In this document: in pieces, positions 30,629-64,000 of the stretch
Layout of the letters: each line of letters starts with the position of its first letter
Position numbering within the stretch: position 1 is the stretch's first letter
Assembly: GCA_965655095.1 (NCBI GenBank)
Contig: OZ296648.1
Span: 73,966,001 to 74,030,000, forward strand
From: Haplodiscus bocki
Lineage: Eukaryota
DNA length: 64,000 nucleotides
Direction of reading: 5' to 3'
Translations under genes and position numbers: made by a program
The notes under the pieces: generated by a model
Told to the model about the DNA's origin: nothing
Database searches by the model: none
What the model saw: the letters and a program-made list of their open reading frames with translations, nothing else

Positions 30629-32714
30629 ATCTTCTACAACCTCAAGAGATCAATGCCGCCCAGTGAAAACTATACTAATGACTGGCTTGAAAACTTTGCT
30701 CAGTTTCTATCATTGTATTACCGAAAAAAGCGCCAAAAACGTCAAAATGCCCCCTTCTATTATTCTTCCCACACCATGCACCTGCTAAACGTCCTCAACA
30801 CTACCGAACGACGCTGTGAGAAATGTCCCTCGGCCTTAAACTTGAGGAAAATGAGCGCGATTGCTCGCGACGTCAATATTTCTAACGAACTTGACACCGC
30901 CGTTTTTTGTGGACTCCTTCATGAAACGTAATAGTGGACTAAATGGCTGCTTCAAACTACAAAAAATACTCAAAACCTCGAACGTACCAAACGTCATGAT
31001 CCAAAACGACGTGAAACTTCAGCGAAATGTTGACATCGGCGAAGCCTTCAACGCTTCCTTTGCCAGTGTCTTCAACCACAGAACGTCAGCTGTCAGTGAC
31101 TTCAGTGATAATGAGATTAATGCTGTACAAATTACACAAACTGATGTTTTTGATGCGTTAACTTTGTCTACTCTTGGAAAGGGTCATGACGGAATCAGTG
31201 ATGACTTCCTGAAAACAAGCTGTTCCGAACTCAGCTTTCACGTGTACAAGCTGTTTCAAAGTATTCTACATGGTGGTATCTACCCTGAAGAATGGAAAAT
31301 CGCGAAAATCACCCCTGTATTCAAATCCGGTAAGAAGCAGGATGTAACATGTTATCGGCCCATTAGTCTATTTTCCAAACTCTCCCTCTCGTTTGAAAGG
31401 GTTAATTTTAAGAATTTGTACAAGTTCATTGCCCAAAAATTGTCCACTCGGCAATTTGGTTTTCTAAAGGGCCGAAGCACCATCACACAACTCCTACTCT
31501 TTCTCACTGAGGCTTACTACGCGAACGAGAAGAACAATGAACTGTATGCGTTCTATCTAGACTTAGCAAAGGCCTTCGACACAGTGCCCGACCATCTAAT
31601 CCTAACGAAACTCAGACACTTTGGAATTGGAGGTAATTTGCTCAAAATTATCGACAGCTACCTGATCGGACGAAAACGAATTGTTGAAATGATGGGGACC
31701 AGCTCTACTTTCCGTGTCATTATCAGTGGGGTTCCGCAAGGCTCTATCTTGGGTCGCCTACTCTTCCTCGTTTTCATAGATAAGTTGCCTAACAGCTGCT
31801 CTGAGTCCCTCATGTTCCTTTTTGCTGATGACTGCAAATCGATCAGCTCGTATCTCCCTGCCCTAGAGCGGGACTTCCACAGCTGTCTTCGTTGGGAACA
31901 TAACCTTATGACTTTCAATTTAAGCAAAACAAACTTTATCGTTTTGGTAAGAGTGCTCCAGGACTATCGCTAAACATCGAAATTACTGCTATCGCTTCTT
32001 CCAATACTGTCAAAGACCTGGGTCTTACTATCAGCTCTAACCTGTCCTGGTCAAGGCATATCGAACTCAAAGTTAAATCTGCGTATTCAATCTTCTACAA
32101 CCTCAAAAGATCAATGCCGCCCAACACCCACTGGCACACGAAGATCACTTTGTTTAAATCCTACATTTTTTCTACAGTTTTAAACGCCTCTGAAATTTGG
32201 TGCCCAAGTAAAACAGATTTGACACGTCTAGAACTTTTACAATCTCGTATGTTCAAATGGGCTTTCCCTGGATCCAACTACAAAGAACGCTTATCGAAAG
32301 CTAAAATGCTGCCCATAACGTTGGAAATACAGTTTCGATCGCTTATTCTCTTGAACAGACTACTAAACGGATTTTACAGCAATTTTCTTATTTTATCACA
32401 TATCTCTTTCACGATCCCAATTTCTGGTGCATACAACACCCGGTTATCTGAAAAGCCTATCTTCCATCTGCCGGAAGTCAAGAAGACACGAACGACCCAC
32501 GATTTCTTTTACCGAGTGCCAAATCTTGTGAAATACTTCCATGCAAACACGAATCTGGACATATTCAAAAACCAAGCTAGTTTCAAATATACTGCTGCGG
32601 CCGAGTTCAACAAATTATCTTTGTTAAATATCTGTAACCTCGAACAAGTACATGTAATTTTTAATTTCCCACTTACATTGCCTTCATAGCAATTCAAGTC
32701 TCTCTCTCTCTCTC
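30629..32714 (+). mobile_element. 5'-truncated LINE (CR1/L2-group RT) inserted in the Polinton TIR, with (TC)8 tail
   Basis: ORF 30861..31973 has YRPISL, QFGF, YLDLAKAFDTV, SGVPQGSILG and FADD; KDLG at ~32012; C-terminal ORF 32114..32689; (TC)8 at 32699-32714. No endonuclease domain. Confidence 0.92.
30861..31973 (+). pseudogene. Reverse transcriptase domain of the truncated LINE
   Basis: 370-aa open frame with all core RT motifs, bounded by frameshifts to the upstream (30653..30931) and downstream (32114..32689) parts of ORF2. Confidence 0.9.
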
Positions 32715-33126
32715 ACCCGAGTTAGGCTACTGTCCAAAATAGGTTTGGTTAGGAAAATCATTGGCACTGTGAGCCCGGGATGAGGTTCATTCGATTATAT
32801 AGGGCACTCCAAGGCATTAGGATTTCGATTTAATGTATCAAAACTTAATTGGTTTGATTCGCGCAGTTCAGTAGTAATGTGTGAGAAGTGGAGGGAGAAA
32901 CAAGAGGTCTGTTGGCGGGTTTTGAAACTGTTCGGAAGGAATACGGAATTCTTGCTGCGGATACTTTAACACTCGTGCGGTTACTTAATTACGGTAGCGG
33001 GTCTCCTTATACTGCTTGATGTTATGTGAAAAGGTTGACTAAAAGATTTAAAAAGCGAATTATACAGTATGAATTTGAACAAAAACCTCGTAAAAACAGC
33101 ATTTTTACATTGAAACTGTTAGGAGT

Positions 33127-33500
33127 TGACATCCAATCACTTATTAGAGATAGTTCATTGAAATTTTGAACTTCAGTAATTTCTTTTTGACGGAAGTTTA
33201 AGAGATGGAAAGCTGCATTAACCGCAAACACTAGCATGGGAGAGAATTTCTTCTGCCATCACTTGCTTGGGATGCTGTTTGGAAAGAACGGTGTTTTTTC
33301 ACTTTCAAGATGGTCTGCAAAAAATTTGCGTGACAAAACTTCGCTATGAATGTCCCTAAAAACTTTTGGGTTGCATGTTGATGAGAGCATGAGTGTCATT
33401 GTCAAGAGTTAGAACTTAGTCAAAGGGAAATGAACCAATGTAACGATGTTTGAGTAGCGGGTGTAACCAGTGAATACCTGCTGGAGAGGTACTTTAACTA
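33127..33500 (-). pseudogene. Polinton adenain-like cysteine protease
   Basis: Minus-strand fragments KHRYIGSFPFD*V..LDNDTHALINMQP...GHS...FFADHL...SVCG...AAFHLLNFRQ follow the adenain H/D/C order; position directly after MCP. Confidence 0.7.
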
Positions 33501-34775
33501 TTCTCTATATTCTATCCAAGAATACCAAACTTGCCAACTGCCACCGAATACAGTCTTTCCTCCTGTGACAAGGTTTCAGTGACGTGTTTTAGAGCAAAAC
33601 TGAAATTTAGGTCACGGCTCAGTGTTTCTCCAACTAATTCTGGGAATTGACAAGTCACTATAGCATTCGGCTTTGAAATCAAATCAGACAACAGTACCTA
33701 ATGGTTTTTGTTATTATCAATTGAAAAGGGGGGATATCATTTTGGAAGTTTAATGCTTTCATTGTCGGAACGTATAGGCGACATTTATCAGCAGCATCCA
33801 AGTTTACAAATGGCTGACCACCTCTGTGTGTTCTAATTTGGCTGAGATCAAATCAGTGATACCCGAATAGACTCTAAGTGTACGATCCACTGAATGCAGA
33901 GTTTTTATTCAATGCAGTAGCAACCCGCCGAAAAAAAACATCCTCCTAATAGTTTTCTTGGATGAACTGGTTTTTTCTGGCAGGGGTGATGAAAGACTTT
34001 GCTAGAAATTCCAAGCGACAGTACTCAACGGAAGTACATGCAAGAATGTCCTTTCGTTTTTTGTGATAATCGTCCTTGAGTGCAAAAGGACCATTGTAAA
34101 GTAAAGAATCAGCAATTCCAGGCCATACGTTGGGGTTTTCGCTGATCTTGTAAAAACTAGGTCTGGTTTTGATTAGTCTCAGCCTAATTTTCTTATTTGG
34201 ATATAGCAAATCAAAAGTGGAAGAAAAGTCAACTCCCGATTTGTTATACAAGATGGAGTTATTGGGTCTACTACGCATTTTCATTCTCCTTGTAGAAAAA
34301 GTTTGAGACTGGGGTGCTTCCATAATCTCGTCAAGAGACTCTTCATATTCGTGCCATTCGCAGTGCCATTCAAAACTCCCTTTTAATTAGAGATGGCTCC
34401 CTGGAAGTTGTTGGAATTGTCAGACATGTGAGCATAGAACACATTTGATTTGTAAATTCTCTAATTGTTGATGTACACGTCAACCTTGGGAAAATTTAGC
34501 CTCTTTGGCCTCCTGTCATGTGTTCCCTTTTAACTTACTTGATATTGTAAGTTTTGTAACCACGACCTATGATGATATTGAATCTCAGAGCCAAGTAGGA
34601 CCCTCTTAAATCAAGGTGAAGAATCCGATCCGTTTGAGTTTTTAAATCAGATGCAGTTTTCATCAAGTGTGTTGGTGGGATAAAACTCTCGTTCGAGGGA
34701 CGACAAGACATTGTGAACGAAAAACATTTTTCTTCAAGACTTCCAGAAAATATCACAAGAAAGTGGTATTGGAGT
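33500..34775 (-). pseudogene. Polinton major capsid protein (double jelly roll)
   Basis: N-terminal EFYPTNTLDENCI*F..TDRILHLDLRGSYLALRF; ORF 33946..34323 (LLYPNKKIRLRLIKTRP...AKSFITPARKNQFIQEN); downstream traces SAFSGSY, FDLSQIR, LYVPTMKALNF, VLLSDL, PELVGETL. Confidence 0.8.
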
Positions 34776-34788
34776 TTTTATGACAAGA

Positions 34789-35155
34789 TTAGTGAGAAAC
34801 ATTTGCAAAAAACTCTCTTCCCGACCGACTCATTTTTTCTGCAGATTTTGTTGTATTGACTCTGCTTGTAGTATTTTTATTGCTACCACTGCCCAACTCT
34901 TTCGTCGGACTTTGTCTTCCCATGCTCTTTGCTGCCCTCTTACGGTTTTTTCTACCACTGACAACCTCTGCAGTCTCTGGGGCTGCAACTTTTGACAAGG
35001 TAGCACTCACAAGTTTTGCAGCTGGGACGAAAAATTTACGTAAAACTGGAATTGCAGTTTAGCCAATATCTTGTGTAAGTAGAATGAATCCCTTTCCACG
35101 CTGTCGACCGATACTTCTACGGAAAAGAATCTGTACTTGCCTTGAAGCAACCATC
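34789..35155 (-). pseudogene. Small basic Polinton protein (core-protein-like, with R.RG.G motif)
   Basis: MVASRQVQILFRRSIGRQRGKGF... continuing VAAPETAEVVSGRKNRKRAAKSMGRQ...LGSGS, located between minor capsid and MCP. Confidence 0.55.
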
Positions 35156-35169
35156 TTGAGGCGTCTTTT

Positions 35170-35970
35170 CAGTGAAAAAGTAAAATTGGTAGTTTTTCCA
35201 GACACTGGAACAAGTCGAGTAATGCCAACGAATACAATGGAACTTTTTTGCATCTTCTCTCTCTCGAATCATTGTGAATAGTATGAAGAAGGTTTTTGAG
35301 CAGCAGTTTAAATTGTGGGTTACCAAATATTCGATAGATCATGCATTGTCCTGCAGAAATTTTGTCCTCAGCTTTTGGCTTGGAATTGAAGGAAAGTAGC
35401 GCAGCAAAGGACCCTTTGTGTCTCCGATGATATTGTACTCAAATCAAGTCTGTGTATAACAAGAGGGGGTGTATGCGGACAATGTCACAAACAAACAAAG
35501 GCTTGTTGTGACTTTTTCCTCTCAACTCTTCTCCGAATTCTTTGGCGATAATTCCAGAAATGTGTCCCAAGTCCGCAATTAAAAACGCAAGATCCGATCC
35601 TCTGCGAGGTAGATATCACTTTCTTTGCTTTTTTTTCGGACAGTTTTACTGCGAGAAGTTTTTCGCTTAGGCTATGTTTCTCTCAATATAGACTGCTTGT
35701 AGTAAAAAAGCCGTAATCGAAAACAAACTCCGGAATTTTTGGGTTCCAGATAGCAAAGTTCGAACGTGTTTGAGAGTTTTGTGTCAAAAAGCATAAATTG
35801 TCCATCTGTTGCATAATGATACGTTATTAGGTGGGATTTTTCTGAAATTGCAATCTCTTATTGCCACTCCAAATTCAGTTGCTTCGGCAAAAAACATGTG
35901 GAAATGCCGAGTGTCTGGAAAAAATTCTCAAGTTCATTAAATAAACTCTTTTCAAAAACGAATCCGATGT
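35170..35970 (-). pseudogene. Polinton minor capsid (penton-like) protein
   Basis: N-terminal FFPD...FLPKQLNLEWQ*EIAISE; C-terminal IVRIHPLLLYTDLI/EYNIIGDTKGPLLR...F..LLKN..HTIH.D.R, matching the Y.D......GD....LLR penton signature. Confidence 0.7.
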
Positions 35971-35989
35971 TCAATGACTTTCGTCAACT

Positions 35990-36880
35990 TTTTCTGATAA
36001 AAATTTCTTAGTTAAATCTCATGTTGGGTGTTTTTTGTTGTATATGTAAATAATTTTCTGAAAAAATTTCCATGAATTTCAAAAAATTGCTGTGTAAGGC
36101 GTTGCCTATAAAACATCTTGAAAAGTATGTCATTTTTGGAGATGCAGACTGTTTTTCCAGTTTGAAATTTTGGTTTTCTGTTTTAACATAGACATTTGCT
36201 GTAAAACAATTAGAAAAAGTCGGAACTTTTGACATCTTTCTGTTTCAAGTTCAATCAAAACTTCTTTTTAGAATTCAAAGTTGTGACAAACTGTGGTAAC
36301 TTGTGAACGTACTTCAATCCGTAAGCTTCCAAGTAGCAATAAAGAACATATTTCAATTATCGTGTTTCGCTTTTGGTATATGTAGCTTTAGTCTCATTTG
36401 TTGTAGAATACATTTGTACTCCGTTTGCATTGCCAATTTATCACAACTCTCCAGCAGTCTCAATCCCCCTTGTCAAAAAAAATTCTTGGGATGGTTTTTT
36501 TCAATTCATAGTTGAAACCACTCTGACAACCTCTTTGGCATTTTTCGTCCCAATTCATTTGCTTTAAAAGTTCGATCAAACAGGTCTTGACAAGAAGCTA
36601 AATAGGTTACACCATTGCGTTCCCTCGCCAGTGTATCCACAAATGAAATATCTATACATGAAATTCAATCTTTGAACTTAGCAAAAGCCTGCATTCCCTT
36701 GAGTTTTCATGTGGTGAAAGTAAAATTCCTGTAGCCAGTCCTCGAATGTAAACATTGTCTAACCTTTGACACTGGAAGGTTGCCAGCCTGTGAAAAACTA
36801 TGAGCAGGTCCATACGCAGTAGCACGTTGAGAGTACAACTTTTGCAATTTTTGACGTTCAGATTTTTGAAGTGACACTGC
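35990..36880 (-). pseudogene. Polinton rve-type integrase
   Basis: KLQKLYSQRAT/AYG...SKVRQCL...AFAKFKD*ISCIDISFVDTLA..NGVTYLASCQDLFDRT...DKG.ETAG...KHDN*, heavily mutated. Confidence 0.75.
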
Positions 36881-37500
36881 GTCGGCTCTCTTAAGTTTGG
36901 CGTTCTGACTTAAAACCAGAGTTGGAAAATTGCCAACAGCGTCAACTTAAAAAAAGTAAATATCCAGGATATCTGCGTTTTTTCGACGCAGTTGTTAAGC
37001 AAAATCCGACAAAAGCTTTACAGTTTCTGCACGAAAGAAACATAAAGCCTGCGTAATTGAAAGCTTAATACGCAGGCAAAACAAAACTTTTTACTAAAGA
37101 AATTGATTTTTCCAAACAACTTTCCAGTCTTTTCCTCCTTTACCGACTGAATTTGGTACGTGGGGTTTTGCTCGGATACTTTGAAAGTTCCTGCTTTGAA
37201 ACTGACTGGGTTTTCAAAATGTTGTTGTACACAGAAGCAGGAACAACAACAAGCTGCTCAAAATTAAAAAAAGAAGGCTAATGACAAGAGAAGTGGGAAC
37301 TTTTGTTGTTAGTTGCAGGCATTTTTAAGACACAAAAAACGTATCTTTTTGTTTCGAAGTTCCTCTTTTTTTTTAAAAAAAAAACAAAATTTGGTTTCGG
37401 ACGTTGTCACGTGACCTTTTTAAATGCTTTGCAAAAATCCCGTGAATATATTTACTATACCCTTGCAGAGAAACCGGAGAAACCTTTGTTTCAAGACTCA
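36880..37500 (-). pseudogene. Two small conserved-looking Polinton ORFs between ATPase and integrase
   Basis: RFLCKGIVNIFTGFLQSI (37500-37420) and LVVVPASVYNN..TQSVSKQEL...LRIKLS...LLSDFA*QLRRKNADI (37260-36900); position matches the small genes that flank Polinton ATPases. Confidence 0.45.
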
Positions 37501-40500
37501 ACGCATTGCCTGCTTCTTTACTGTATAGTTCATTGGAGCAATTGCAGAGTAGAGTGATTTTGCGTGCTCAATATCTACAGACTTTAAATGCACTAACAGA
37601 TCAGAACTAGATTATTTCGATGAGATTGATCTACTTTTTGTACAATAACGTAATCTGTTGTCTATAAGTGGCAACAAATCAATCAATATTTGCCCGTAGT
37701 GAACAGACGTTGAGTCTCGATACCAGGCTATTGGCTCTGACCCCGACGCAAAAGTGCACTTAGCAGAACAACTTGCATCGCATGTTGGAGGGATTTGTAG
37801 AAGACAGTGTATGTGGTTTGTAGCACAGCATTTAGACCTAGTTCACTTTGATGAGAAGAATTGTGCTTGTCGTGAGTAAAACTGAATCCGCGATGTGTTT
37901 CAGCAGTCGTATTTTCAACATAAAAAATTTACTTGCAAAATTATTCACAAAAATCATCGAAGCTCAACAATAACAATGTAGAGATATTTTTACTGAATCA
38001 CGGAATTAAAAGTTTACACCGTATTTAACAACGAGATCTCAAATGTTTTTTTTTGCATAATATCAAAGAAATGTTAATATGTTGTTGAGAAAACTAAAAT
38101 TTTTCTTAGTTTGGTTGTAAAATCCTATATGTTAACCACCTGTAAATATGTCCCAAATGTTTTATGTCTCGGCAGACCAAAGAATGATGTAAAGACGCAA
38201 CTCTTACGCAGAAAAATACTTCTCGTTTTTGGTTCTTTTCAGCTCTTCGTTCCCATTGTAGTTTTAGTGATCAGAGGCGACGTTATCACATTTAGCAACA
38301 TCCTACCTTGCTTCAACGCGCCATTGAGATTCTGAGTTATTGTCAAGCAGTTCCGCAAGTTCATCAATTCATTAATGCTTTATTTGCATCAGCTTACAAT
38401 TGTCCTTTTTTGGCACGAACAATTTTGAGTGGCAAACTATTTTGTTCACTGTTTTGGCGAGGATGAAAAAAACAATAATGAGCTACATGAAAACCCAACC
38501 CATAATACTGATTTGTCACAATCATTCGCTTCTGAAATATAACCAACTAAATAAAAGCAGCAAAAAGACAAGATAACATTCAGAGATCTTGAACTGGTTT
38601 GTCCCAAAAATCCAACGATTTTCACTCTCGATTGTTGTTGCCAAAGACACTTTTGCTTAACTTATAAATATTTTTATGAACAGTCATCTAGCTTCGATGC
38701 TTTCTTCCCAATTTTTGTATCTTAGGACAAAAAGGCTCAAATTCAGAAGACTTCCTTACCCGGACACAAACATTACAAGGAACAATAAAACTTTCACAGC
38801 TCCAATCACTACATTTTCCAGATATTGAACATTTCTGCCTTTCAATCTGCACAGTCAAAAAAAGTCTTGTGTCGGAATGGGTGGCTGGACCGAATCAACA
38901 TTTCTTCATCTGCTTTGAGATTCAAAAGATCTTCAATTGCGGAACAGCCATGATGTTACAAAGTTTTACTTATCTGTCAACAAAGTGTTCAGAATCTTGC
39001 AATTTCTGGTCCCCTCCGCAAAAATTTCAACCTCTACATTTTAAGAAAGAACGTTTGTGAACTCACTGTTATCCAAACTTCCACTGTTCCGCACACATCC
39101 GTGCAAATTAACTCTTCACCAGAAGACTCGTCTTTATGGGTTTGTACCTTTTTGGAGGACGCAAAAAGTAACCTTCGTAGCAGGCATTTTTAAGACACAA
39201 AAAACGTCTCTTTTTGTTTCCAAGTTCCTTTTTTTTATAAAAAAAGACAAAATTTGGTTTCGGACGTTGTCACGTGACCTTTTTTAATGCTTTGCAAAAA
39301 TCCCGTGAAAATATTTACTATACCCTTGGAGAGAAACCGGAGAAACCTTTGTTTCAAGACTCAACGCATTGCCTGCTTCTTTACTGTATAGTTCGTTGGA
39401 GCAATTGCAGAGTAGGGTGATTTTGCGTGCTCAATATCTACAGACTTTAAATGCACTAACAGATCAGAACTAGATTAATTCGATGAGATTGATCTACTTT
39501 TTGTACAATAACGTAATCTGTTGTCTATGAGTGGCAACAAATCAATCAATATTTGCCCGTAGTGAACAGACGTTGAGTCTCGATACCAGGCTATTGGCTC
39601 TGAGCCCGACTCAAAAGTGCACTTAGCGGAACAACTTGCATCGCACAATGGAGGGATTTTCAGAAGACAGTGTACGTGGTTTGTAGCACAGCATCTAGAC
39701 GTAGTTTACTTTGAGGAGAAAAATTGTGCTTGTCGTGAGTAAAACTGAATGTGCGATGTATTTCAGCAGTCGTATTTTCAACATAAAAATTTACTTGCAA
39801 ATTTATTCACAAAAAACATCGAAGCTCAACAATAACAATGTACAGATGTTTTTACTGAATCACGGAGTTAAAAGTTTACACCGTTTCTAACAACGAGATT
39901 TTCAATCTTTTTGCATACTATCAAAGAAATGTTAAGAATGTTGTTGTGAAAACTAAAATTTTTCACAGTTTGGTTGTAAAACCCTATTTTTTAACCACTT
40001 GTGATTATGTCCCAAATGTTTTGTGTCTCGGCAGACCAACGCATGATGTAAAGACGCAACTCTTACGCAGAAAAATACTTCTTGTTTTTGGTTCTATTCA
40101 GCTCTTCGTTCCCACCGTAGCTTTAAGGATCGGAAGCGACGTTATCACATTTAGCAACACGCTACCTTTCTTCAACGCGCCATTGAGATTCTGAGTTATT
40201 ATCAAGCAGTTCCGCAAGTTCATCAATTCATTAGTGCTTTAGTTGCATCAGCTTACAAACATCCTTTTTTGGCACCAAAAATTTTGGGTGGCAAAAAATT
40301 TGTTTCACTGCCTTGGCGAGGATGAAAAAAATACTAATGAACTACATGAAAACCCAACCCAGAATACCGAATTGTCACAATCATTCGGTTCTGAAATAAA
40401 ACCAAATATATAAAAGCAGCAATAGGACAAATAAACATTCAGATATCTTGAACAGGTTTGTCCCAAAAAAGCCAACGATGTTCACTCTCGGTTCTTGTTG

Positions 40501-43500
40501 TCAAAGACACTTTTCCCTAACTTATAAAAATTTTTATGACCAGTCATCTAGCTTCGATGCTTTTTTTTCCATTTTTGTATTTTAGGACAAAAAGGCTCAA
40601 ATTCAAAAGACTACCTTACCCAGGCGCAAACATTACAAGGAACAATAAAACTTTCACAGCTCCAATCACTGCATTTTCCAGATACTGAACATTTCTGCCT
40701 TTCAATCTGCACAGTGAAAAGAAGTCCTGTGTCGGAATGGGTGGCTGGACCGAATCAACATTTCTTCATCTGTTTTGAGATGCAAAAGGTCTTCAATTGC
40801 GGAACAGCCATGATGTTACAAAGTTTTACTTATCTGTCAACAAAGTGTTCAAAATCTTGCAATTTCTGGTCCCCTCCGCAAAAATTTCAATCTCTAATTA
40901 TTAAGAAAGAACGTTTGTGAACTTACTGTTATCCAAACTTCTACTGTTCCGTACACTTCCGTGCAAGTTTACTCTTCATCAGAAGGCTCGTCTTTATGGG
41001 TTTGTACCTTTCTGGAGGACGCAAAGAGTAACCATGGTAGCAGGCATTTTTAAGACTCAAAAAACGTCCTTTTGTTTCGAAGTTGCTTTATTTAGAAAAA
41101 AAAATTGGTTTCGGACGTTGTCACGTGACCTTTTTTAAGGCTTTGCAAAAATCCTGTGAATAGATTTAGTATACCCTTGCAGAGAAACCGGAGAAACCTT
41201 TGTTTCAAGACTCAACGCATTGCCTGCTTCTTTACTGTATAGTTCAATGGAGCAATTGGAGAGTAGGGTGATTTTGCGTGCTCAATAGAAACAGACTTTG
41301 AATGCACTAACAGATCAGAACTAGAATATTTCGATGAGATTGTTCTACTTTTTGTACAATAACGTAATCTGTTGTCTATAAGTGGCTACAAATCAATCAA
41401 TAATTGCCCGTTGTGAACAGACGTTGAGTCTCGATACCAGGCTACTGGCTCTGACCCCGACGCAAAAGTGCACTTAGCGGAACGACTTGCATCACATAAT
41501 GGCGGGATTTGTAGAAGACAGTGTACGTGGTTTGTAGCACAGCATCTCGACCTTGTTTACTTTGATGAGAAAATTTGTGCTTGTCGTGAGTAAAACTGAA
41601 TCCGCGATGTATTTCAGCAGTCGTATTTTCAACATAAAAAATTAACTTGCAAAATTATTCGCAAAAATCATCGAAGCTCAACAATAACAATGTACAGATG
41701 TTTTTACTAAATCACGGAGTTAAAAGCTTACACCGTATTTAACAACGAGATTTTCAATCTTTTTTGCATAATATCAAAGAAATGTTAAAAATGTTGTTGA
41801 GAAAACTAAATTTTTTCACAATTTGGTTGTGAAACTCTATTTGCTAACCACTGGTGAATATGTCCCAAAAAAATTATGTCTCGGCAGACCAACGAATGAT
41901 GTAAAGACGCAACTCTTACGCAGAAAAAAACTTCTTGTTTTTGGTTCTGTTCAACCCTTCGTTGCCACCGTAGTTTTAGTGATCGGAAGCGATGTTATCA
42001 CATTTAGCAACATGCTACCTTGCTTCAACGCGCCATTGAGATTCTGAGTTATTATCATGCAGTTCCGCAAATTCATCAATTCATTAGTGCTTTAGTTGTA
42101 TCAGCTTACAAACATCCTTTTTTGGCACGAACAATTTTTGGTGGCAAACTATTTTGTTCTTTGTCTTGGCGAGGATGAAAAAAGTACTAATGGACTACAT
42201 GAAAACCCAACCCATAATACTGATTTGTCACAATCATTCGTTTCTGAAATAAAACCAACGAAATAAAAGCAGCAAAAGGACAAGATAACATTCAGAATCT
42301 TGAAGAGGTTTGTCCCAAAAAAGCCAACGATTTTCACTCTCAATTGTTGTTGTCAAAGACACTTTTGCCTAACTTATAAATGTTTTTATGACCAGTCATC
42401 TAGCTTCGATGTTTTTTTTTCCCATTTTTGTATCTTAGGACAAAAAAGCTCAAATTCAAAAGACTTCCTTACCCATACACAAACACTACAAGGAACAATA
42501 AGACTTTTACAGCTCCAATCACTGCATTTTCCAGATACTGAACATCTCTGCCTTTCAATCTGCACAGTGAAAAAAAGTCTTGTGTCGGAATGGGTGGCTG
42601 GACCGCTTCAACATTTCTTCATCTGCTTTGAGATGCAAAAGGTCTTCAATTGCGGAACAGCCATGATGTTACACAGTTTTACTTATCTGTCAACAAAGTG
42701 TTCAGAATCTTGCAATTTCTGGTCCCCTCTGCAAGAATTTCAAACTCTACATTTTGAGAAAGAAAGTTTTTGAACTCACTGTTATCCAAACTTCTACTGT
42801 TCCGCACACTTTCGTGCAAGTTTACTCTTCATCAGAAGGCTCGTCTTTATGGGTTTGTACCTTTCTGAAGGACGCAAAGAGTAACCATGGTAGCAGGCAT
42901 TTCTAAGACTCAAAAAACGTCTTTTTTGTTTCGAAAATGCTTTTTTTTAGAAAAAAAGACAAAATTTGGTTTCGGACGTTGTCACGTGACCTTTTTTAAT
43001 GCTTTGCAAAAATCCCGTGAAAATATTTACTATACCCTTGGAGAGAAACCGGAGAAACCTTTGTTTCAAGACTCAACGCATTGCCTGCTTCTTTACTGTA
43101 TAGTTCGTTGGAGCAATTGCAGAGTAGGGTGATTTTGCGTGCTCAATATCTACAGACTTTAAATGCACTAACAGATCAGAACTAGATTAATTCGATGAGA
43201 TTGATCTACTTTTTGTACAATAACGTAATCTGTTGTCTATGAGTGGCAACAAATCAATCAATATTTGCCCGTAGTGAACAGACGTTGAGTCTCGATACCA
43301 GGCTATTGGCTCTGAGCCCGACGCAAAAGTGCACTTAGCGGAACAACTTGCATCGCACAATGGAGGGATTTTCAGAAGACAGTGTACGTGGTTTGTAGCA
43401 CAGCATCTAGACGTAGTTTACTTTGATGAGAAAAATTGTGCTTGTCGTGAGTAAAACTGAATGTGCGATGTATTTCAGCAGTCGTATTTTCAACATAAAA

Positions 43501-44752
43501 ATTTACCTGGCAAAATTATTCACAAAAATCATCGAAGCTCAACAATAACAATGTACAGATGTTTTTACTGTATCACGGAGTCAAAAGTTTACACCGTTTC
43601 TAACAACGAGATTTTCAATCTTTTTGCATACTATCAAAGAAATGTTAAGAATGTTGTTGTGAAAACTAAAATTTTTCACAGTTTGGTTGTAAAACCCTAT
43701 TTGTTAACCACTTGTGATTATGTCCCAAATGTTTTATGTCTCGGCAGACCAACGAATGATGTAAAGACACAACTCTTACGCAGAAAAATACGTCTTGTTT
43801 CGGTTCTTTTTAGCTCTTCGTTCCCACCGTAGTTTTAGTGATCGGAAGCGACGTTATCACATTTAGCAACATCCTACCTTGCTTCAACGCGCCATTGAGA
43901 TTCTTAGTTACTATCAAGCAGTTCCGCAAGTTTCTCAATTCATTAGTGCTTTAGTTGCATCAGCTTACAAGCATCCTATTTTGGCACGAATAATTTTGGG
44001 TGGCAAACTATTTTGCTTACTGTCTTGGCGAGGATGAAAAAAATACTAATGAACTATATGAAAACCCAACCCATAATACTGATTTGTCACAATCATTCGC
44101 TTCTGAAAGGTAACCAACTAAATAAAAGCAGCAAAAGGACCAGATAACATTCAGAGATCTTGAACTGGTTTGTCCCAAAAATCCAACGATTTTCACTCTC
44201 GATTGTTGTTGCCAAAGGCACTTTTGCCTAACTTATAAATATTTTTATGAACAGTCATCTAGCTTCGATGCTTTCTTCCCAATTTTTGTATCTTAGGACA
44301 AAAAGGCTCAAATTCAGAAGACTTTCTTACCCGGACACAAACATTACAAGGAACAATAAAACTTTCACAGCTCCAATCACTACATTTTCCAGATATTGAA
44401 CATTTCTGCCTTTCAATCTGCACAGTCAAAAAAAGTCTTGTGTCGGAATGGGTGGCTGGACCGAATCAACATTTTTTCATCTGCTTTGAGATTCCAAAGA
44501 TCTTCAATTGCGGAACAGCCATGATGTTACAAAGTTTTACTTATCTCTCAACAAAGTGTTCGGAATCTTGCAATTTCTGGTCCCCTCTGCAAAAATTTCG
44601 AACTCTACATTTTATCAAGGAACGTTTGTGAACTCACTGTTATTCAAACTTCTACTGTTCCTCACAATTCCGTGCAAGTTTACGCTTCACCAGAAGGCTC
44701 GGCTTTATGGGTTTGTACCTTTCTGGAGGAAGCAAATAGTAACCTTGGTAGC
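37315..44752. repeat. Tandem array, 4 x ~1.86 kb, of an internal Polinton segment carrying the packaging ATPase
   Basis: Unit starts gcaggcattt at 37315, 39180, 41040 and 42893 and ends at 44752 (periods 1865, 1860, 1853, ~1858); about 90% identical by eye. Confidence 0.97.
37500..38230 (-). pseudogene. A32-like DNA packaging ATPase (copy 1; equivalent copies at ~39360-40090, ~41215-41945, ~43075-43805)
   Basis: Minus-strand translation: CVFTSF(F/V)G-AET* (ruined Walker A), LLLSFDDFCE (Walker B), TTAETHRGFS..KHN..HQSELG...LQTTYTVFYKS (the T.GRH arginine-finger region) and WYRDSTSVHYGQILIDLLPLIDNRLRY (C-terminal Polinton ATPase motif). Confidence 0.8.
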
Positions 44753-44830
44753 TGCCGTTGATAGAATCTTCAAAGGTGTTGACAACGTGTCTGTCTGCAA
44801 GCTCATTATTTAGTACAGTGCAAGAGATGA
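44380..44830 (-). pseudogene. Polinton accessory gene, possible DEDD-like exonuclease fold (5' end only in the rightmost copy)
   Basis: CTVLNNELADRHVVNTFEDSINGSYQGYYLLPPERYKP...IFAEGTRNCK...HGCSAIEDL...SSHPFRHKT..CAD*KA. The pattern hhhD/N.E...PP...GC...H.C resembles an exonuclease-like ORF carried by Polintons. Family call is from motif memory only. Confidence 0.4.
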
Positions 44831-47759
44831 TGCTTCAAAAGCTGACATGTTTTCGAATGGAAGGTGAAAAAAGTGTTATAAAAACACATGGTGATAATCC
44901 AATCAAGTGACCCAGCAAACATTTATTATGTCCTGGTTCTTTCATGTAACAGTAGACAGGGCCTTTGCCAGTATGCAACAGCACTGCTGCAGTTGCATCA
45001 TGTACTTTCGAATATAGCTTAAATACCATGAAGTGCTAATTTATAACTTCCAAGTTTGAATCCCTATACCCAATGGTTGCATATAACTCAAAACTTTGAT
45101 CCATCTCACGTAAAGCGACTCCTTCAGCCCAACACCCACATGCACATAGGAAAAAGTCTTCGGGAGCACTATTCTGTTCAAATGACATTTTCACTTTCGA
45201 GTAGTATCGGAAAATGCTCTTTAGAACGAGAAAATGAAGTCATGACGAAAGTTGTTTCAATTGTGAACCGTCGATTCCTCCAGTATATTGCATCGTCTGG
45301 AAAATATGTCATGGTAGCTCGAAAGATAAACTCGTTCAGAGGAAATCTTTTTGTATTCTGTCGTTTCTAATTCCTTTTCCTAGTCTTTCAGTCATATGTT
45401 GTTTCGATAGCTATAGGAGACAAAATTCAGTTTGTCGGTATTAGTCTGGTATTTCCTATATACTTTTATTCCACCCTTGTGTTTTCTTCATTTTACACAA
45501 AACGATTCATCTCTTGAATCAATCTTTTCAATATCTGGCAATTGTTGAACATCTACTAGAGTTAAATTATTCTTTCGGAAGAAGTTGCGGGTTTTTTAGG
45601 CTCAACATGCCAAAGTTCCGTTTTTTTAAACTTGAGAAAACGGTTTTTTTCATCTCCAAATCTTCACCTCAATCTGATTCGACAAAAAGAATAAAGACGC
45701 AAATTGAAACATTTCGATTACTTTCAAAAGACATTACAAGCGAGTTGATTAATAATTACTTTATACTATACAAAACTGATGAATTCAAGCAGAAATTTGC
45801 ATTCTCGGAGCTCACAATTCACATGGACAGTTGGTTTGAAATTTCTCTTTTCCTTTTTTCATAAAAGTATCGGGACTTCAGCATAAGAACTCTGTGGATG
45901 ATCCCCATTGTATCGCAGTGGAGTAACACACTTTTTGTCTGGGGTCGGTCCAAAGCTTTGTAAACAAGCTTGAGTTGTGTTCCCATTTTTGGAGCATTTT
46001 TGGTATCTGTATGGTAAACAAGTTCTGGTCTCTGCCAATGTTTTTTGCTGCAACGAACAGCTCTTTCCTCAACTTTAGAGATTGTTTGAGAACAGATTTA
46101 AAAATTTGTTTGGGACCAAGCAAAAGTCTTTGTTGTCATCTTCTTTGAACACTCTGAGTTTTACATCCAGATAGTCGGAATCATTCTTAGACCCAGAAAA
46201 ACTACAGAATCTGATTTGGCAATTTCCAAAATTCACGAAGTCGGTCTAATATTTTTCGTACGAGGAAGCATTCGTTTTGTAATCCAGGGCGTTTGGTCTT
46301 TAAGATAGACCGCTGGTTGCTGGAAAAAGTTGTTTTTTGGGAAAAAAATTTTAAGAAAGACTTTGGAGGTTCGAAATGTTGCCCAAACTTTCTTTTTTTT
46401 CTCGTTTTCTCATGATAGTTCCAAATAAGGAAATCTTTACCTTTTTTGGTCATTGAGATGACCTACTTTCATGTAGGGTGCCTGTTTTTCGGAAAGTTTG
46501 TAAGAGCAAGTAAAGTTTTGTTTTGTATATTCAATTGTTCGGAAAAGAACTCAAAAATCAGACAGGAGCTTTAAAGTGACAAGTGATACCCTATTTCGAT
46601 TTTTTGATTCACACTTTTCAAAAAACAGTCTTTTTTTCTGCAAACTTATATGAAAGATGTATTATATGTAAAGAATACTGTATTGACCACCACGATGACA
46701 AGCTGTGTTTTCTATTCAAATTCTAGAAAAAAAACATTATAGTGAAAGGAGACGCTGTTGAATTACTTCTGAAGATCGACGCAAGCTGTCTGACACATCA
46801 ATACGTGGACTGCCTCTATACACTGTCCAAAAATTGATTCAATGGAAAATATCTTGCGTGCAGAGGGCAAGTATTTGAAAAGGTGTAGAAAGTAGTCTAC
46901 TTGAAATGAAAATAGAAGAGTCGAGAGAAAACCTAGCATTGCAAGCAAAAGATTCGTCGGAAAAATTTACAAAAAGCATTTCTTGAGCTGCTTCTAGAAG
47001 TCAAAATCAACCCAAACCACCGGATCAATGTTTCCAGAGCTAATTGAACAACATAAAAAGGACAACCTTCGAAATGGAATGTATGAAGTGTGTATAGTTC
47101 ATTTTAAGGTTGTGGCATTTATGATACTTGTATAATTTGTCCTAGAGCTTAATATTTATAAAACAACCATTTCTTCTAGCCCAAAATAGATCTGTTATAT
47201 TGAAAAAGTAGTGCACATGAAGTAGCCAAAAAAACCTAACATCAAATTTAAAGCAATAACGAAACCAAGAGTTAAACAGGCTCCCTTGAATTGCAGGGAA
47301 AAAAACACTATTTTTTAAACGTTTTCATTTTTGTCTTCGCGGACACCTCACCGGATATCGTCCCATATCCAATCTAAATAACGCATAGATTCTCTGTACG
47401 CGTCAGTGTCTTTGAGCGGCTCGAACTTTTTTGTTTCTCCGTGGAACCAATAGAAGATAAACCTACGAGAAAACTTGATTTTCCTTTTTAGAAAAGTCAA
47501 ATTCAGGCAAACAAAGTTAAAAAGATGGAACATTTGATCCAAAGGGTTCTGTTTAGAGCCTCTATGAAATTTTTTTTTGTCAAAAGAAAGGGACTTGTTC
47601 CAAATTGCTAAGGTAAGAGAAGTTTCTTCTATTATACTGGGTTAAGGTATTTTACCTCGAAACGAACAGTTTCCCACTTTTAGCTCTGTACAGCAAACAG
47701 GTATTGATACTGAAAACAGAAAACAGAAATGGTCCTTTAGCAAAAACTTCGAAACTGAC

Positions 47760-50539: not shown

Positions 50540-53500
50540 AAGGAAAAAAAGCCCCAAATTTTGCAGAATGCACACTTCAGAAAAAAAACAAGTTCATTTT
50601 TTTCATGTAATAAATGTTCAGTTAGAACACTGTTTTGTGCTAAATGTCCCAACTTCTCAACACGTTCTGAGGTTGATCTCAACTTTCGTATTTCAAAAAA
50701 TCATAGCGCATCAGAACCGAAGCGACCTCCCCAAGCGTCAACTTTATTACCAAATTTTTGTTGCTTTTTATTTGCGGCGGTTTCACAAACAGAAAGTGCA
50801 CAAAGAGTAAAGCGTATCGGAGGCCAAAAATGTGGATGTGACAAAGTTGTTTAGAATTATTGACGATGAGAGCTTAAAAGAAGAACTGTAAACGTGCAGG
50901 AACTTTCTTGTGGACCCTGAGATGAAGAAGGGAAGGCATTGATTCTTCAATTTGGCCATGGAGAAACTAGATGCACACACTTTGAGCCAAAAAGTAGACA
51001 GAGTGTTCGAGAACCTCAAGTGTGCTATAAACTTGAAGTTTTCAGTTAGCCCGGTACTCAAGAATGTAAAACTGGGAATTTTTGGCACTACCATGGACAC
51101 AAAAACAACACTTTGACGGAAGGAGCAAAGTTTGTGGCCGTCAAAAGAGATTTGGTATACATTAGGAATGTGTTGATTAGCACTGATGTTGTTGAAGCGT
51201 GCACAAAAGTCTGAGCATTTTTCAAGTGTAAATCTGCAAATACATCAGTGCACTGATTTTGCAGCACTACTCAGTGAAATTTCCATGGGTTGTGTAGACG
51301 CAGTAATGTAATGCCAGAGCCATTGAGGAAAAATCACTCCGGTATAATTGTGTAACTTACGAAGGGTTAACCAGAAAACCGTACAACACAAACTATGTCT
51401 TTCGATAGCTCTCGCTTTGCAATTTCACGGAAATGGGGGACTTAGGGAAAAACTTCAATATTCTTCAATTTGTTCCGAGAAAAAAATTAGAATAACTGGT
51501 CCAGCGGGTTTTGAAGGTGTTTGCATGTTTGATATTTCAATTGTACGACAAAAGTTTTGCTGGTGAAGCAACCTCTGGAGAGTTTTCCAGGAGAAAATTT
51601 TCAAACATTCCAACACTGTTCGACCAATACGTTACAACAGCCACATTTGCTACGTCTCCAAAATCAAGGCTCTCTTCAAAATATATCTTTTTCCAATGTG
51701 TGGTCAGTTTAAGAAGTAGGCTGGAAACCTGGAGAAGTGTTTTACAACTCGCAAAGAACGAGTTGAGCATTTCTACCGAAAAACGTGTATCAGCTTCGTG
51801 AAACACTGTTTAACAAACTCGACACGTTTGGTATCCATAACAGACAAAATCAAAAATTTTCTACAATTTAATAATATATAAATTTGAGTCAGCCTGTTTG
51901 GAAGATGAAGATTCCAAAGATACAGAAACAAAAACAACGATTGCCAGCGCATCGCAATTTTGTTATCGATATCATCTTACTTGATACGAGAATCCAATGT
52001 TTTCAGCTATCTGAATGCTTGTGACTTGGTGTCATCTTTCCCCGATGCTTTGGAGAGTTTGGCCGTGCAGGGTAAAGCTCAAATGAAACAGAAGTTCCTT
52101 TAGAATGAAACCTCATTCAAAAGTAGACTTCCACGTACACAAGAAGCACAAAATCAACGTCGTCGCAGTGGTTGTGTTGGTATTGACGCACCAAACAATA
52201 GTTCAGCAACACGCTTTTTGGAAGTGCAATTTAGCAACTAAGTGACTTGTAAGAACATATTGAGAGTTATTGAATACCTCATCCTTCCTTATTTTCAACA
52301 GTGGAGGCCACGACTTCAACTTTATCCAGATTTACATAGAACCTACTCTTGCAAACGAGAGAGATATTGAATCGATTGTTATCAAAAAAGCCAAGGACTT
52401 TGACTCGTTCGATTTTTGTGATGCTCAACTTTCTGACATTTTAAATTTTGTTGGAGGTGCTACCAATTATGATTTTTTCCCGAAACTTCACAATAAATCT
52501 GAGAAGAGAGATTTCTTTCCGTGCGAAAAGTTTCTTTCCCCAGACGAATTGCACAGTTAGGAGCTTCCTCCTTACGAAGTCTTTAACATTTTACTACGAA
52601 AATACAATCCTCTTGAAAAAAGTATCTTGACTACGAGAAGCCTATCTGTTGTTTTCAAAGACTGAGTCTGGCCTGGTCAAAATATTGAGGTTCTCTCAAA
52701 TAGCACGTACGGCAGCAGAGAACTAGTCCCAAATTTTTGAAAGTGTGGGGCAGGAAAAGGTTCAGTCATTCAAAGACTTTTTGCGCTGGTACAGTAACAA
52801 AAATATTAGTTCAACATTGAAGGCAATAAAAAAAATGCTCGAGTTTCATCACGACAAAGTTATTGGCTTGCTCAAGCTTGGATGGACTTTAACCAAACAA
52901 GCCAACATTTGCTTGCACGGCTCCGCCAGTGGAAAATTTTATCCATTCACAGAAAACCATAAAAGTTTGCTAACAAAACTTCATGGAGACATTGTTAGAT
53001 GGCCGTCAAAACGATTGAAGGTAAAGCGATTGTTGACAAGACCAAGACCTACATGTCTACGAGTGTTTGCCAATCAATTGTTGGAATAGATACTAAGCAG
53101 TTTCAGTTTTACTCAATGTGTCAACCTACGCGTACTGGATTCCACAAAAAAATCCGAGTTTGACGCAGATTTGCCCAGATTATAGACTCGACAAAACAAA
53201 TTTTGAAGAGTCAACAAAATGGTCATTTGATATTTTCAATGAATAGGGCAGAATTGTAGAACTGACAGTTCTTCACTACATGAAGTCAGAAAACATTGAC
53301 TGTTTAAATGCAGATAGGTTTTGTGCATATGGCAACACAATGCGTGAGGCAATGGGTTGATTTTGTTTTTACTGTTCTGGTCAAGCAACACGACCGGCAT
53401 TAACTGAAGAAGATAATCAACAAAGAACTGAAAAAGGGAAACGGATGGATTTAGGAAGCAGTATATCGAGGACAAAAGTTGAATCGTTGTCAAAACGTGG

Positions 53501-54812
53501 AAAAGTGCATGGTGGAAACCCTATAAGTCTGATGTGCTAGTAAAGGAACACTTGAGAGAGTCTTTACCATACAAGCGTCCGTTTCGTCAAGACCAGTTAT
53601 TGGCCAAAATGAAACCACAGGCTTTATTAGGTTACACACAGTTTAATATCAAAACTACAGGCCAACTGACGAAACAACTTGCCAATTTCCAGCCGATTTT
53701 CGAAATTACAATCGTCCGTAGACATGATATTGGTCCACTAGTGCCAGAGTTTGCTGAGAAGGAAGGATTAAGGTCCCAACCGCAACGAGTGTTAATTTTT
53801 AGCGTTCAGCAATTGTACTATTATTACTCGCTTGCTACTGCTCTGTTCGGACCTGGGATTTGATGCAAAAAATTCTACCGCTTCGTTGATTACACCCTTG
53901 TGGAAAATTATAAGGACTCTATGCAATCTGTTGTCAATGTTCGTTGTCTCGGAAGCTAGAATCCCTACTCAAGTATGTTTGCAGAAACTATGAAGGTGCT
54001 TGCAAACAGCTCGAAACTTTGTCAAGTTATTGATCTCTGTCGCCATTCAGTTACTAGCTACATGACTGATAAACAAACACTCGCAGCGATCAACATTAAA
54101 TTGTTCAACAGACTGTGGCTTGTCAGCGTTCAACTTAACAAGGTAGAGCTTGCAAAATCTGAAGTCGAACATAAAGAAACAATCAAAAAAGGCTTTTTTA
54201 TTTTGCAGTACGCAAAGTTGGGTATCTTGGTGCTCTGCTACAATTTCTCCCTGGAATTTTTCGTTACGTACAAGAAAAAGTAGATGGAAATGAATACCGA
54301 TTCGAGCTATAAAACCTTAACAGAAAAAATGTGTGATTGTATACGAAAAGAGAAAATGCAAAAGTGAGAAAGTTTACGTAGCAACGACTGGACTGATTCG
54401 TTCACTGCAGACGCTTGCAGCAACTTCTTTCCCTGTTCCTGTTGGGCTAAATATAAAAAACAATATGGAAGAGAACCCGATCTGTTCAAGAAAGCATTTC
54501 GATAAACTCAAATAATTTTTTTGTGCAGCAGTAGAAACTGCTGTTTCGACTTTTCAAGCAACAGGTGTAAATTCAGCAGAGAAGGCTCAAACAAATGACA
54601 GTTTCGAGACAGTGGGAATAGAAAGAAGGCAAAGTTTTGAAAAATGTCGAAAGAAAGAGAAAAAAAAACTTCTACCAAAGGTGGATTTCTCACAAAGAAG
54701 CTTTTTGCAGCAACCTACGAGCAGAAAAATAAAAGACTCTCCTACTTTTCTTCTGATTGAATTGTGGAGACAGATGGAATTCATACTCTTCCAATCCAAG
54801 TTAAAAATCAAT
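50540..54812 (+). pseudogene. Protein-primed family B DNA polymerase of Polinton B, with N-terminal C2H2-like fingers
   Basis: CAKCPNFSTRSEVDLNFRISKNHS; ExoII IFNSGGHDFNFI; FFPCEKF; ExoIII SFKDFLRWYSNKNI; motif A SIVGIDTKQ...SMCQP..TG (~53075-53140); motif B ETMKVLANSS; motif C MEMNTDS (54284-54304); REPDLFK; terminal DGIHTLP (~54773-54793). Confidence 0.9.
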
Positions 54813-54939
54813 AAAACTGAGTGTTTTTCAAATTTATGCTCCCTGACTCACTTCCTTATCCCTTTTCAATCTTTCTTCATTATATCAAGCAATATAAAAT
54901 ACCCATTCCCTTATTAAAAAACCGGCAGTGTTAAAAAAT

Positions 54940-55727
54940 TATCCGCAGGCATATTAAGAAAAACGTAGAAGTAATAAATAGTCCGCACGTGTAATTACTT
55001 ATCCGCACGCGCAATTAACTATACGCACCCAACAAATCTGACTCTCTCCGTTCATGTTCCAATTCCGCTGACAAACTTTTTGTTTCCCCCGTCCCCACTT
55101 CTGCTCACACCTTGTTACTGAACTGCTGCATTCAAACCAAACATTTTTCAATACACAAAACCCACTTCTTAATGCATTGTTATGCCAATATATGTCGAAG
55201 TGAACTTCTTCTCGGGTACACAATGTCAAACCCTATCCTAACACATTGGGGCAGTGCCAAAAAGTTTTTTTAAACATTGGAAAAGTGCCGAAAAACCCCA
55301 ACCTGATATAAGAAGGTAGTGCAGAAAAACTCTATCTTGAATCTTTGGGGTGAACATTATCTTGAAGTGAACCCTGGCCACATAGTCTAATATTGCCGAG
55401 ATGCCCCATCTTGGGGTGGGAGTCTTTCATAAAACTTTCGTGTATCGTCGGGCAATGCCGCAAAACCTCAGTACATTGGAGTGGCTCGAGTATTGACGAA
55501 CAACCGCATTACAGTGGTGTGTCTCGGGTAGTACCGAACTCGATCTTCATACATTGGGGTAGTGCCGAAACGCCTTTTGACACAATGTAGTAACATCCGT
55601 GCCGAGAAGTGACCTCCAATCCTAAACATCGCATGTGGGGTGCATTGGGCTTTCTGGTCGCTATAGCCTATCTTTTTACATGGAGAGACCTCCATCCCTT
55701 GTCTTATTAGCTCACTCCCTCACTACT
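54940..55727 (-). repeat. Right TIR of Polinton B with internal ~38-40-bp sub-repeats
   Basis: Ends ...ctcactccctcACTACT. Sub-repeats of cattgggg(t/c)agtgccgaaa type at ~55244, 55274, 55316, 55451, 55527, 55551 and 55598. Confidence 0.85.
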
Positions 55728-62700: not shown

Positions 62701-64000
62701 GAAATATGCAGTTCATGGAAATCGCGGCACTGTGGTGTTCATGGGGAAAGTCCTACAATCTAGTACTGTTAAACCTTGCTGATATTTAGAACGCCTAATA
62801 CAATTTAAACGGAATTGTGCACTTTTTCGCAACCTCGGCAGTGTTATATTCATGGAGAAAGTCTTACAAACGGCAAAACAAAAGGCCAAACCAGTTTCAA
62901 CTGGAGAGTATACCTGTTGAGTATTGGGATGTTTGTTTATAAAATTCAATACTGGTGACAACTAGAATCCGTTTTTACCATTAGAAGAAGTTTTCCCAAT
63001 TTTATTGGCACAGTGAGGCTCTCTTGAAAAAACAGCAGGGACTAGAAGAAAAAACTATGGCCAGCTGAAAATAAAAACGCAAGTAATTTAACCAAAATTG
63101 TCTAAAGCTGCTGATAAGTGTAGTCTCCATACTTTATTCCAAACGACTGTGATTTTCCAGGTACTTTCGAAACTGTAAGAAGAAATGTGAGAAACTGCAG
63201 AAAAAAGGAATAGAAGTTATTTTTCAAATTGCAGTTTGCTCAGAACTGTTTACTCCTGCTGTTGATTTTTGGAGAGTTCCCTGGCCTTTAATTGGAGTTT
63301 CAGGGAGCTTCGGCACTGGGATACTCCTTGAGATAACTTTGAAAGCCGCAGAAGAAATATCGAATCCTGTTAAGTTTTGAAGTTGAAACACTGGGATGAT
63401 TGGAAAGTTAGTAGTGGGTGAGAAGTAGAATTTTTCTTTACAAATCTGTTTGAAAGACCTTTTTCTGAAAAGACTTGTCCACAAAAACTTAAAATGAACT
63501 AGGCTTTGATGAAAAACTGAGGCCACTTGGGAATTTGGCGGTGGGCAACTTGCTCAGTAGCGTTTCAAAGTGCTGATAAGTCTACTCTTCAAATAAATAT
63601 CTGTTTTTGGTTTATTCGGGTCTGCAAGATCAGATGGAATAAATTGAAATTCACAAAGAATTCGAAAATTTCAGTGCAATATGGAAAATGAAATGTTGTG
63701 AAAATGTGTTTTAGTGTTTGATTTCGAAGTGAAAACATAACTACAGTGTTTTTTCTAAGCACGTGTGAAACTTCCCAACAATTCCAATTTTGTGAAACTT
63801 GTTGCAGAAAACTTGACAGCAGTTAGAATATTGAAAAAATCGTATCACAGTGTAAATGTTGAAAAATAGGAAAAAAGTTTAAGCGAGTTTTTTTGCTGAC
63901 ATTTTTAGTGTAAACAAAAGTTAGGAAAATGCACTTTTCTGGAAATTTCAGTTCTCTGTGAAGAATTTAAAAATTTTAGACTGATCAAAGATAAAAGAAA

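Follow-up and report, generated by a model that had tools for sequence, protein, structure and literature searches.

Tandem repeats built from parts of mobile elements are known from plants and animals. CRM1TR and CRM4TR of maize are tandem repeats derived from the long terminal repeat (LTR) as well as the untranslated region (UTR) of Ty3/gypsy retrotransposons (PMC3648361), retrotransposon-derived arrays are described in Lathyrus (PMC7004042), and the locust satellite LmiSat34-299, with a 299-bp unit, shows homology to Polinton coding sequence (PMC4935994). Transposon subsegments are held to become tandem by microhomology-mediated joining and by nonallelic homologous recombination or unequal crossover, and satellite-rich regions to favor their expansion (PMC12628747, PMC9659126). 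Tandem copies of viral genes are represented by STORM of Scheffersomyces, a totivirus-like, four-gene paleoviral array (10.64898/2026.05.24.726934), and the gene set of adintoviruses comprises a protein-primed DNA polymerase B (pPolB), an RVE integrase, an FtsK-like ATPase, and virion-module genes (PMC8502044). Here we analyze a 64-kb stretch of the Haplodiscus bocki assembly GCA_965655095.1 (contig OZ296648.1, positions 73,966,001 to 74,030,000, hereafter the window; C1:73.97-74.03 Mb), in which a decayed Polinton holds four head-to-tail copies of a segment around its packaging ATPase gene. We propose, at a probability of roughly 0.8, that these copies of an internal piece of a broken Polinton arose by one tandem duplication in the host, followed by growth and exchange between units, and that they are probably functionless. 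We favor this reading because a single breakpoint recurs at three junctions, lesions are shared among units, the units are mosaic, the junction is private to the locus, and parallel arrays exist elsewhere in the genome.

Results

Self-BLAST of the window reveals a fourfold head-to-tail array at 37309-44752, with units 1 to 4 measuring 1865, 1860, 1853, and 1859 bp, respectively (table 1). Tandem Repeats Finder, run with a period limit of 500, passed over it. Pairs of units differ by 116-156 substitutions and 5-8 indel events each, which corresponds to distances (p) of 0.062-0.084, that is, 6-8%. At the join, the array's two ends agree at six of nine bases, an imperfect microhomology. A 121-bp junction query gave nine matches in the assembly; the join is spanned only at the three junctions of the window, and four of the nine, at other loci, cover one side of the join only. 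Among the best 40 candidates scored in the 1.5-Gb assembly, only the four window units exceed 90% identity to the array, the rest of the matches listed being partial and mostly 65-70% identical. The kilobase-sized unit is confined to this single locus, and the array is a transposon-derived tandem repeat, since a portion of a mobile element makes up its head-to-tail units entirely.

All four diverged units are present in raw data. Each unit's private sequence is present in contigs of all four public runs, with 0-3 differences and at roughly the depth of the flanks; these runs represent two samples of one study and are possibly the source of the assembly itself. It is very unlikely, then, that haplotypes or noisy reads were stacked in tandem during assembly or that the units are chimeric. 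Mis-phasing could in principle yield a mosaic, and no listed public-run contig spans the whole array. Nevertheless, the units are 6-8% apart, whereas only a few sites separate the runs from the assembly, and stacked alleles would not create the same new join three times. In run X4, from the second sample, one contig joins 41765 to 42912 via 32 other letters and the array is unevenly covered, which hints weakly at a variant array allele or at copy-number variation between individuals. This run was read to 85%, and array sequence that no contig covers in it was not counted as evidence; contig joints with sides of 20-23 bases were treated as repeat noise.

On the minus strand, each unit holds codons ~28-149 of a 151-aa open reading frame (ORF), then an entire 86-aa ORF, the ATPase, and an ORF overlapping the ATPase 3' end. 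The ATPase reaches approximately codon 303 of 314, its last ~10 reference codons lying to the left of the array, and ~86 of the 100 codons of the overlapping ORF lie inside each unit. An earlier inspection of the same DNA, which we call the sequence-only reading, had assigned to each unit the 3' part of an accessory gene, the whole ATPase, and the 5' part of the next small ORF; both partial genes were correctly recognized, but the ATPase is short by ~10 codons and the 86-aa ORF had been overlooked. That reading also held that the array is not a foreign insertion, and Polinton sequence does run on collinearly on both sides. Its Walker A motif occurs once per unit in all four units, its CAD*KA stop recurs in all four at reference codon 138 of the 151-aa ORF, and the search that it recommended for the junction at other loci leaves it unique to the window.

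The identity of the ATPase, on which the earlier interpretation depended, is supported. Pox_A32 is the sole Pfam family matched by the ATPase homologs (29 of 37; best E 3.5e-6), the query ATPase itself scoring 21.8 bits, slightly below the cut-off of 22.8. When the four window copies are read through with an X at each break, the homolog profile gives them 215-231 bits, whereas the highest score among 200 shuffles is 7.1; the reconstructed frame thus matches A32/FtsK-like ATPases. With the ATPase of a relative as query, no PDB sequence came under E 0.12, and the AlphaFold model of that protein has a mean predicted local distance difference test score (pLDDT) of 42. For the 151-aa ORF, the Atlas returned unnamed clusters only, an exonuclease-like reading being a lead at 0.86.

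Four tandem viral gene copies invite comparison with the four-gene paleoviral STORM array of yeast (10.64898/2026.05.24.726934), and domestication of the units as protein-coding genes might be considered. However, none of the units has an intact ORF, each ATPase copy carrying 11-14 breaks, and the differences between units show no third-position excess (see below). Broken frames and the lack of coding constraint refute a domesticated coding array at the protein level, and we consider it next to impossible.

Several lines of evidence suggest that decay preceded amplification. First, of 19 stop columns in the three ORFs, nine are found in all four units, three in three, two in two, and five in one. 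Two ATPase frameshifts occupy an identical column in each of the four units, and another one occupies a nearly identical place, frameshift calls near columns 716-757 being ambiguous. Second, sites that vary between units are distributed 38/41/24 over the three codon positions (p about 0.16), whereas the differences of 23 young copies from a single reference copy are distributed 270/121/519. Third, the terminal repeats of the element are separated by a Jukes-Cantor (JC) distance of 0.36 (confidence interval 0.27-0.46), compared with 0.075-0.106 for unconverted unit pairs, and are thus ~4 times more diverged than the units; the terminal repeats of two young copies are 95.5-96% identical. If the repeats were identical at insertion, the first duplication would fall roughly in the last quarter of the element's history. 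Because stops and frameshifts are shared, a third-position excess is missing, and the terminal repeats greatly exceed the units in divergence, amplification most likely took place after the death of the element. This agrees with the sequence-only reading, which placed inactivation first and asked for shared and private lesions to be mapped: nine stop columns and the frameshifts common to all units, with five private stops and no coding constraint since, bear it out.

These observations also bear on whether a virus or transposon was still live when the duplication occurred in it, perhaps as a defective genome formed in the course of pPolB strand-displacement replication, and integrated already fourfold. 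The single breakpoint and near star-like base divergence would fit one replication event, and a young copy with a 99.9%-identical 2.4-kb internal duplication suggests that young elements duplicate too. Such an origin is nonetheless strongly disfavored and has little probability in our view, as nine stops and at least two frameshifts, spread over the whole unit, are shared and conversion would need to have spread each of them to all four copies, the terminal repeats are far more diverged than the units, and the junction is found at no other locus.

Exchange between units is evident from the informative sites, which group units 2 and 4 in the left half and units 1 and 4 in the right half. The 41 informative sites fall into 7 runs, compared with a permutation mean of 24.9, and none of 200,000 permutations gave a number as low. 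No single branching history yields this mosaic, and we therefore infer gene conversion or unequal exchange. Simple doubling of a dimer, in which unit 1 would equal unit 3 and unit 2 would equal unit 4, was rejected, since unit 1 is 8% different from unit 3 along its whole length.

The ATPase was not a preferred target of amplification. We compared 42 other Polinton copies, the best matches to the window element, which together hold 393,588 Polinton-like bases; L143 was excluded as a continuation of L076, and short-period hits in L074 and L138 did not count as internal amplifications because they match repeats that lie within the terminal inverted repeat. The ATPase is repeated in none of these 42 copies, and kilobase-scale internal arrays of other segments are present in two. 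One is a young copy (L076:5048-9866; C10, about 13.375 Mb) with 2 x 2,408 bp over the penton, core, and capsid genes, the two halves being 99.9% identical and overlapping by 3 bp where they meet; this duplication could be either very recent or an assembly error. The other, at C10:91,857,261-91,930,466, consists of about 41 head-to-tail units of 1,787 bp, which extend over 73 kb inside one decayed Polinton. Each of its units contains a small ORF, the integrase, and the 5' part of the penton gene, and the array is framed by that element's ATPase and capsid genes. The 33 whole units of this array differ by 3-6% on average, and 32 of the 33 share two integrase stops. More distant Polinton-like fragments lie near this array (L162:5091-8026 and L166:7214-8867; C10, 91.94 and 92.00 Mb). 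Because the two other arrays repeat segments with capsid or integrase genes, nothing marks out the ATPase; amplification specific to it is not supported, and the amplified segment appears to be arbitrary.

The neighborhood of the window is rich in satellites. An 805-bp satellite (96-98% identical) is found in 9 of 12 left-flank stretches (C1, about 73.80-73.93 Mb) and a 1.48-kb satellite in all 12 right-flank stretches (C1, 74.03-74.15 Mb). Among 40 control stretches, evenly spaced at round-number positions, 10 hold arrays with periods of 300-5,000 bp (67,307 of 400,000 bases). Only one of nine more distant probes holds an array, and the neighborhood is therefore locally enriched. A second fourfold array, 10 kb away at 22240-27559, has 1,329-bp units that are 97.4-99.8% identical and occur only at the window locus; it is distantly related to 56486-57752, to 62937-63593, and to the right-hand 1.48-kb satellite. 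Neither the two flanking satellites nor the 1.33-kb unit matches any of six Polinton-containing stretches. The window with its flanks, 124 kb in all, has no Rfam match and ARAGORN gave no genes in eight flank stretches, and the flanking satellites therefore match no catalogued RNA gene. The C1 satellite zone around the window is possibly pericentromeric. Within the window, 2073-2483 shows a weak Pfam hint of a host exon (EML beta-propeller, E 0.006).

The assembly carries a very large, young Polinton family: a genome-wide ATPase search produced 15,595 first-look candidates, all 127 scored matches are 94-100% identical to the query, and 5 of the 40 control stretches contain Polinton-like sequence. 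With so many young copies present, the array might be kept as a source of PIWI-interacting or small interfering RNAs (piRNAs, siRNAs) that silence them, as the sequence-only reading had suggested. PIWI slicing is possible with as few as 15 contiguous pairs (PMC10338343), so that a few sites could work, and 20 of 7,422 array 16-mers do occur in young copies. Longer matches are scarce, however: 5 of 7,420 18-mers and none of 7,417 21-mers are common to the array and 29 stretches around young copies, and ~1% of sampled 26-mers lie within three mismatches. Furthermore, unamplified parts of the element on the capsid and integrase side do equally well or better (21 of 4,086 16-mers), far closer copies are abundant elsewhere, and the amplified segment differs between loci. 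A small-RNA role would fit the array sequence poorly, and we regard it as improbable. The broader proposal that Polinton relics repeatedly seed gene-sized macrosatellites, which become heterochromatic small-RNA loci restraining young Polintons, is likewise a long shot; if true, it would provide a route from a dead DNA virus to antiviral memory via local tandem amplification.

The decayed Polinton itself spans about 32748-55727, and natural ORFs of its relatives map collinearly across the window. Protease-, capsid-, core-, and penton-like genes, the RVE integrase, the array, and the accessory ORFs are on the minus strand, and pPolB is on the plus strand (table 1). Pfam matches on relatives' ORFs support pPolB (PF03175, E 6.9e-9) and the integrase (PF00665, E 4.6e-9). 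For the major capsid, relatives' ORFs have no Pfam match, and their Atlas neighbors at 0.98 include one cluster with the DJR-like PF21738 on 24% of members, a recognition below threshold; 33221-33460 corresponds to a short ORF that follows the capsid gene in a relative, and there is no protease Pfam match. The names of the four virion genes are those that we presume from synteny, and the 134-aa ORF next to the array carries what we take to be a PLA2-like motif. Outside the array, six genes were tested, and each is broken, with 0.8-3.6 lesions per 100 codons. The inverted repeats (32748-32992 vs. 54991-55242) are identical at 174 of 254 positions, both match the terminal repeats of young copies, and the right terminus lies at 55727. 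Polintons feature a 6-bp target-site duplication; one is present at one young copy, and the left terminus of the window element was not found. Reverse-transcriptase ORFs at 30855-32689 (RVT_1, E 1e-22) directly adjoin the truncated left terminal repeat and may have removed the left end of the element. Among the best 40 candidates scored, no relative is closer than ~65-75% DNA identity.

Table 1. Window coordinates of the array and of the Polinton that contains it
Feature	Position	Strand	Remarks
Left terminal inverted repeat remnant	32748..33110	.	Outer end not found
Broken protease-like, major-capsid-like, core-like, and penton-like genes (presumed names)	33221..35917	-	Synteny
Broken RVE integrase	35973..36913	-	141/309 identical to relative's ORF
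Unit 1	37312..39180	-	Adjoins original left flank
Unit 2	39181..41040	-	
Unit 3	41041..42893	-	Most diverged, 74 private substitutions
Unit 4	42894..44752	-	Adjoins original right flank
Junction 1	39177..39188	+	Identical breakpoint again at 41037 and 42890
Homogenized tract, unit 2 = unit 4	39240..39610 (unit 4 about 42950-43322)	.	374 identical alignment columns
Homogenized tract core, unit 1 = unit 4	38755..38903 (unit 4 44326-44474)	.	5 differences/400 columns around
100-aa ORF overlapping ATPase 3' end, 5' part	42908..43146	-	Completed only beyond unit 1 (37283-37571)
A32/FtsK-like packaging ATPase pseudogene, unit 4	42921..43795	-	
ATPase aligned parts, other units	41114-41859, 39209-40064, 37287-38147		
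86-aa small ORF, broken	44026..44258, 42167-42399, 40314-40547, 38455-38687	-	Whole in every unit
151-aa accessory ORF, broken	44383..44828	-	5' ~26 codons outside array; units 1-3 only codons ~28-149
134-aa ORF just outside array	44838..45260	-	No Pfam match
Broken protein-primed DNA polymerase B	50612..54802	+	Matches relatives' ORFs
Right terminal inverted repeat	54930..55727	.	Ends like termini of young copies

Discussion

We favor a history in which an illegitimate tandem duplication, as a single host event, would have struck a Polinton that had already decayed. The first step may have been microhomology-assisted repair or a template switch, as the matching bases at the array ends suggest. 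Copies 3 and 4 could have come from unequal crossing-over or from the initial replication event, and later gene conversion would explain why unit 4 closely resembles unit 2 along one side and unit 1 along the other, with near identity in both cases. Judged from its DNA, the array is probably neutral.

Several points weigh against this history. The microhomology is weak (6/9) and decayed, and the sequence by itself cannot tell repair from rolling circle as the first step. Gene conversion can spread lesions and lower the divergence between units, so that the shared lesions and the estimated date are somewhat inflated toward a late and recent event. Additionally, the terminal-repeat distance comes from one local alignment of 254 columns, the relatives used as lesion reference are only ~67% identical, and some frameshift positions are uncertain. 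Finally, periods of at least 1 kb are found in only 3 of the 40 control stretches, and one of these is a multiple of shorter periods.

A macrosatellite has a kilobase-sized unit at a single locus, present in tens of copies whose number varies between individuals. The window array shares with this class the size of its unit and the single locus, but it consists of four old, diverged units; tens of copies are found in the C10 array, which is a full Polinton-derived macrosatellite. The earlier suggestion that the window fragment is turning into a macrosatellite is therefore only partly upheld, finding its support in the sister array of ~41 copies. Together, the 43 elements, including that of the window, offer a natural series of 2, 4, and ~41 copies in one genome, each framed by its parent element. 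Breakpoint, lesions older than the amplification, and later conversion tracts can be read from such a series, which makes the birth of kilobase satellites directly measurable. The C10 array of ~41 copies is a better object for follow-up than the window array. A further implication is that "viral genes" may be repeated in an assembly without selection for the gene.

Tandem repeats from transposon subsegments are already established, and the window array is one more instance, ordinary by itself. The element behind the Lathyrus arrays is presumably Ogre. Among the titles of open-licence literature on Polinton/Maverick satellites, macrosatellites, tandem arrays, and piRNA clusters, none concerns gene-sized arrays inside a Polinton, which is not proof of absence. 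Likewise, Polinton or Maverick is not named in the main text of two reviews on transposon-derived satellites (PMC12628747, PMC9659126). The window array shares a tandemized subsegment with transposon-derived satellites in general but lacks a preexisting short internal array as seed.

The gene set of the window element, as far as it can be read from broken frames, matches the description of adintoviruses, and degraded endogenous adintoviruses/Polintons are alike in retaining this gene set in a relic with nonsense and frameshift lesions (PMC8502044). Internal tandem amplification, which distinguishes the window element, is not mentioned in the parts of that article considered here. STORM similarly has four tandem viral gene copies in a host genome, but its genes are transcribed, coding, and long conserved, whereas the window units are pseudogenes without coding constraint (10.64898/2026.05.24.726934). 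As described, CRM1TR and CRM4TR are alike in being locus-specific, derived from part of a mobile element, joined illegitimately, and subject to gene conversion; similar LTR/UTR regions were used each time in maize, whereas the Haplodiscus arrays consist of coding segments of a DNA virus-like element that differ from locus to locus (PMC3648361). LmiSat34-299 likewise comes from Polinton coding sequence, which places the class on record already. In the account given of it, this satellite is recognized by homology only (PMC4935994), whereas the Haplodiscus units are gene-sized (1.8-2.4 kb) and still lie between the flanks of their parent elements.

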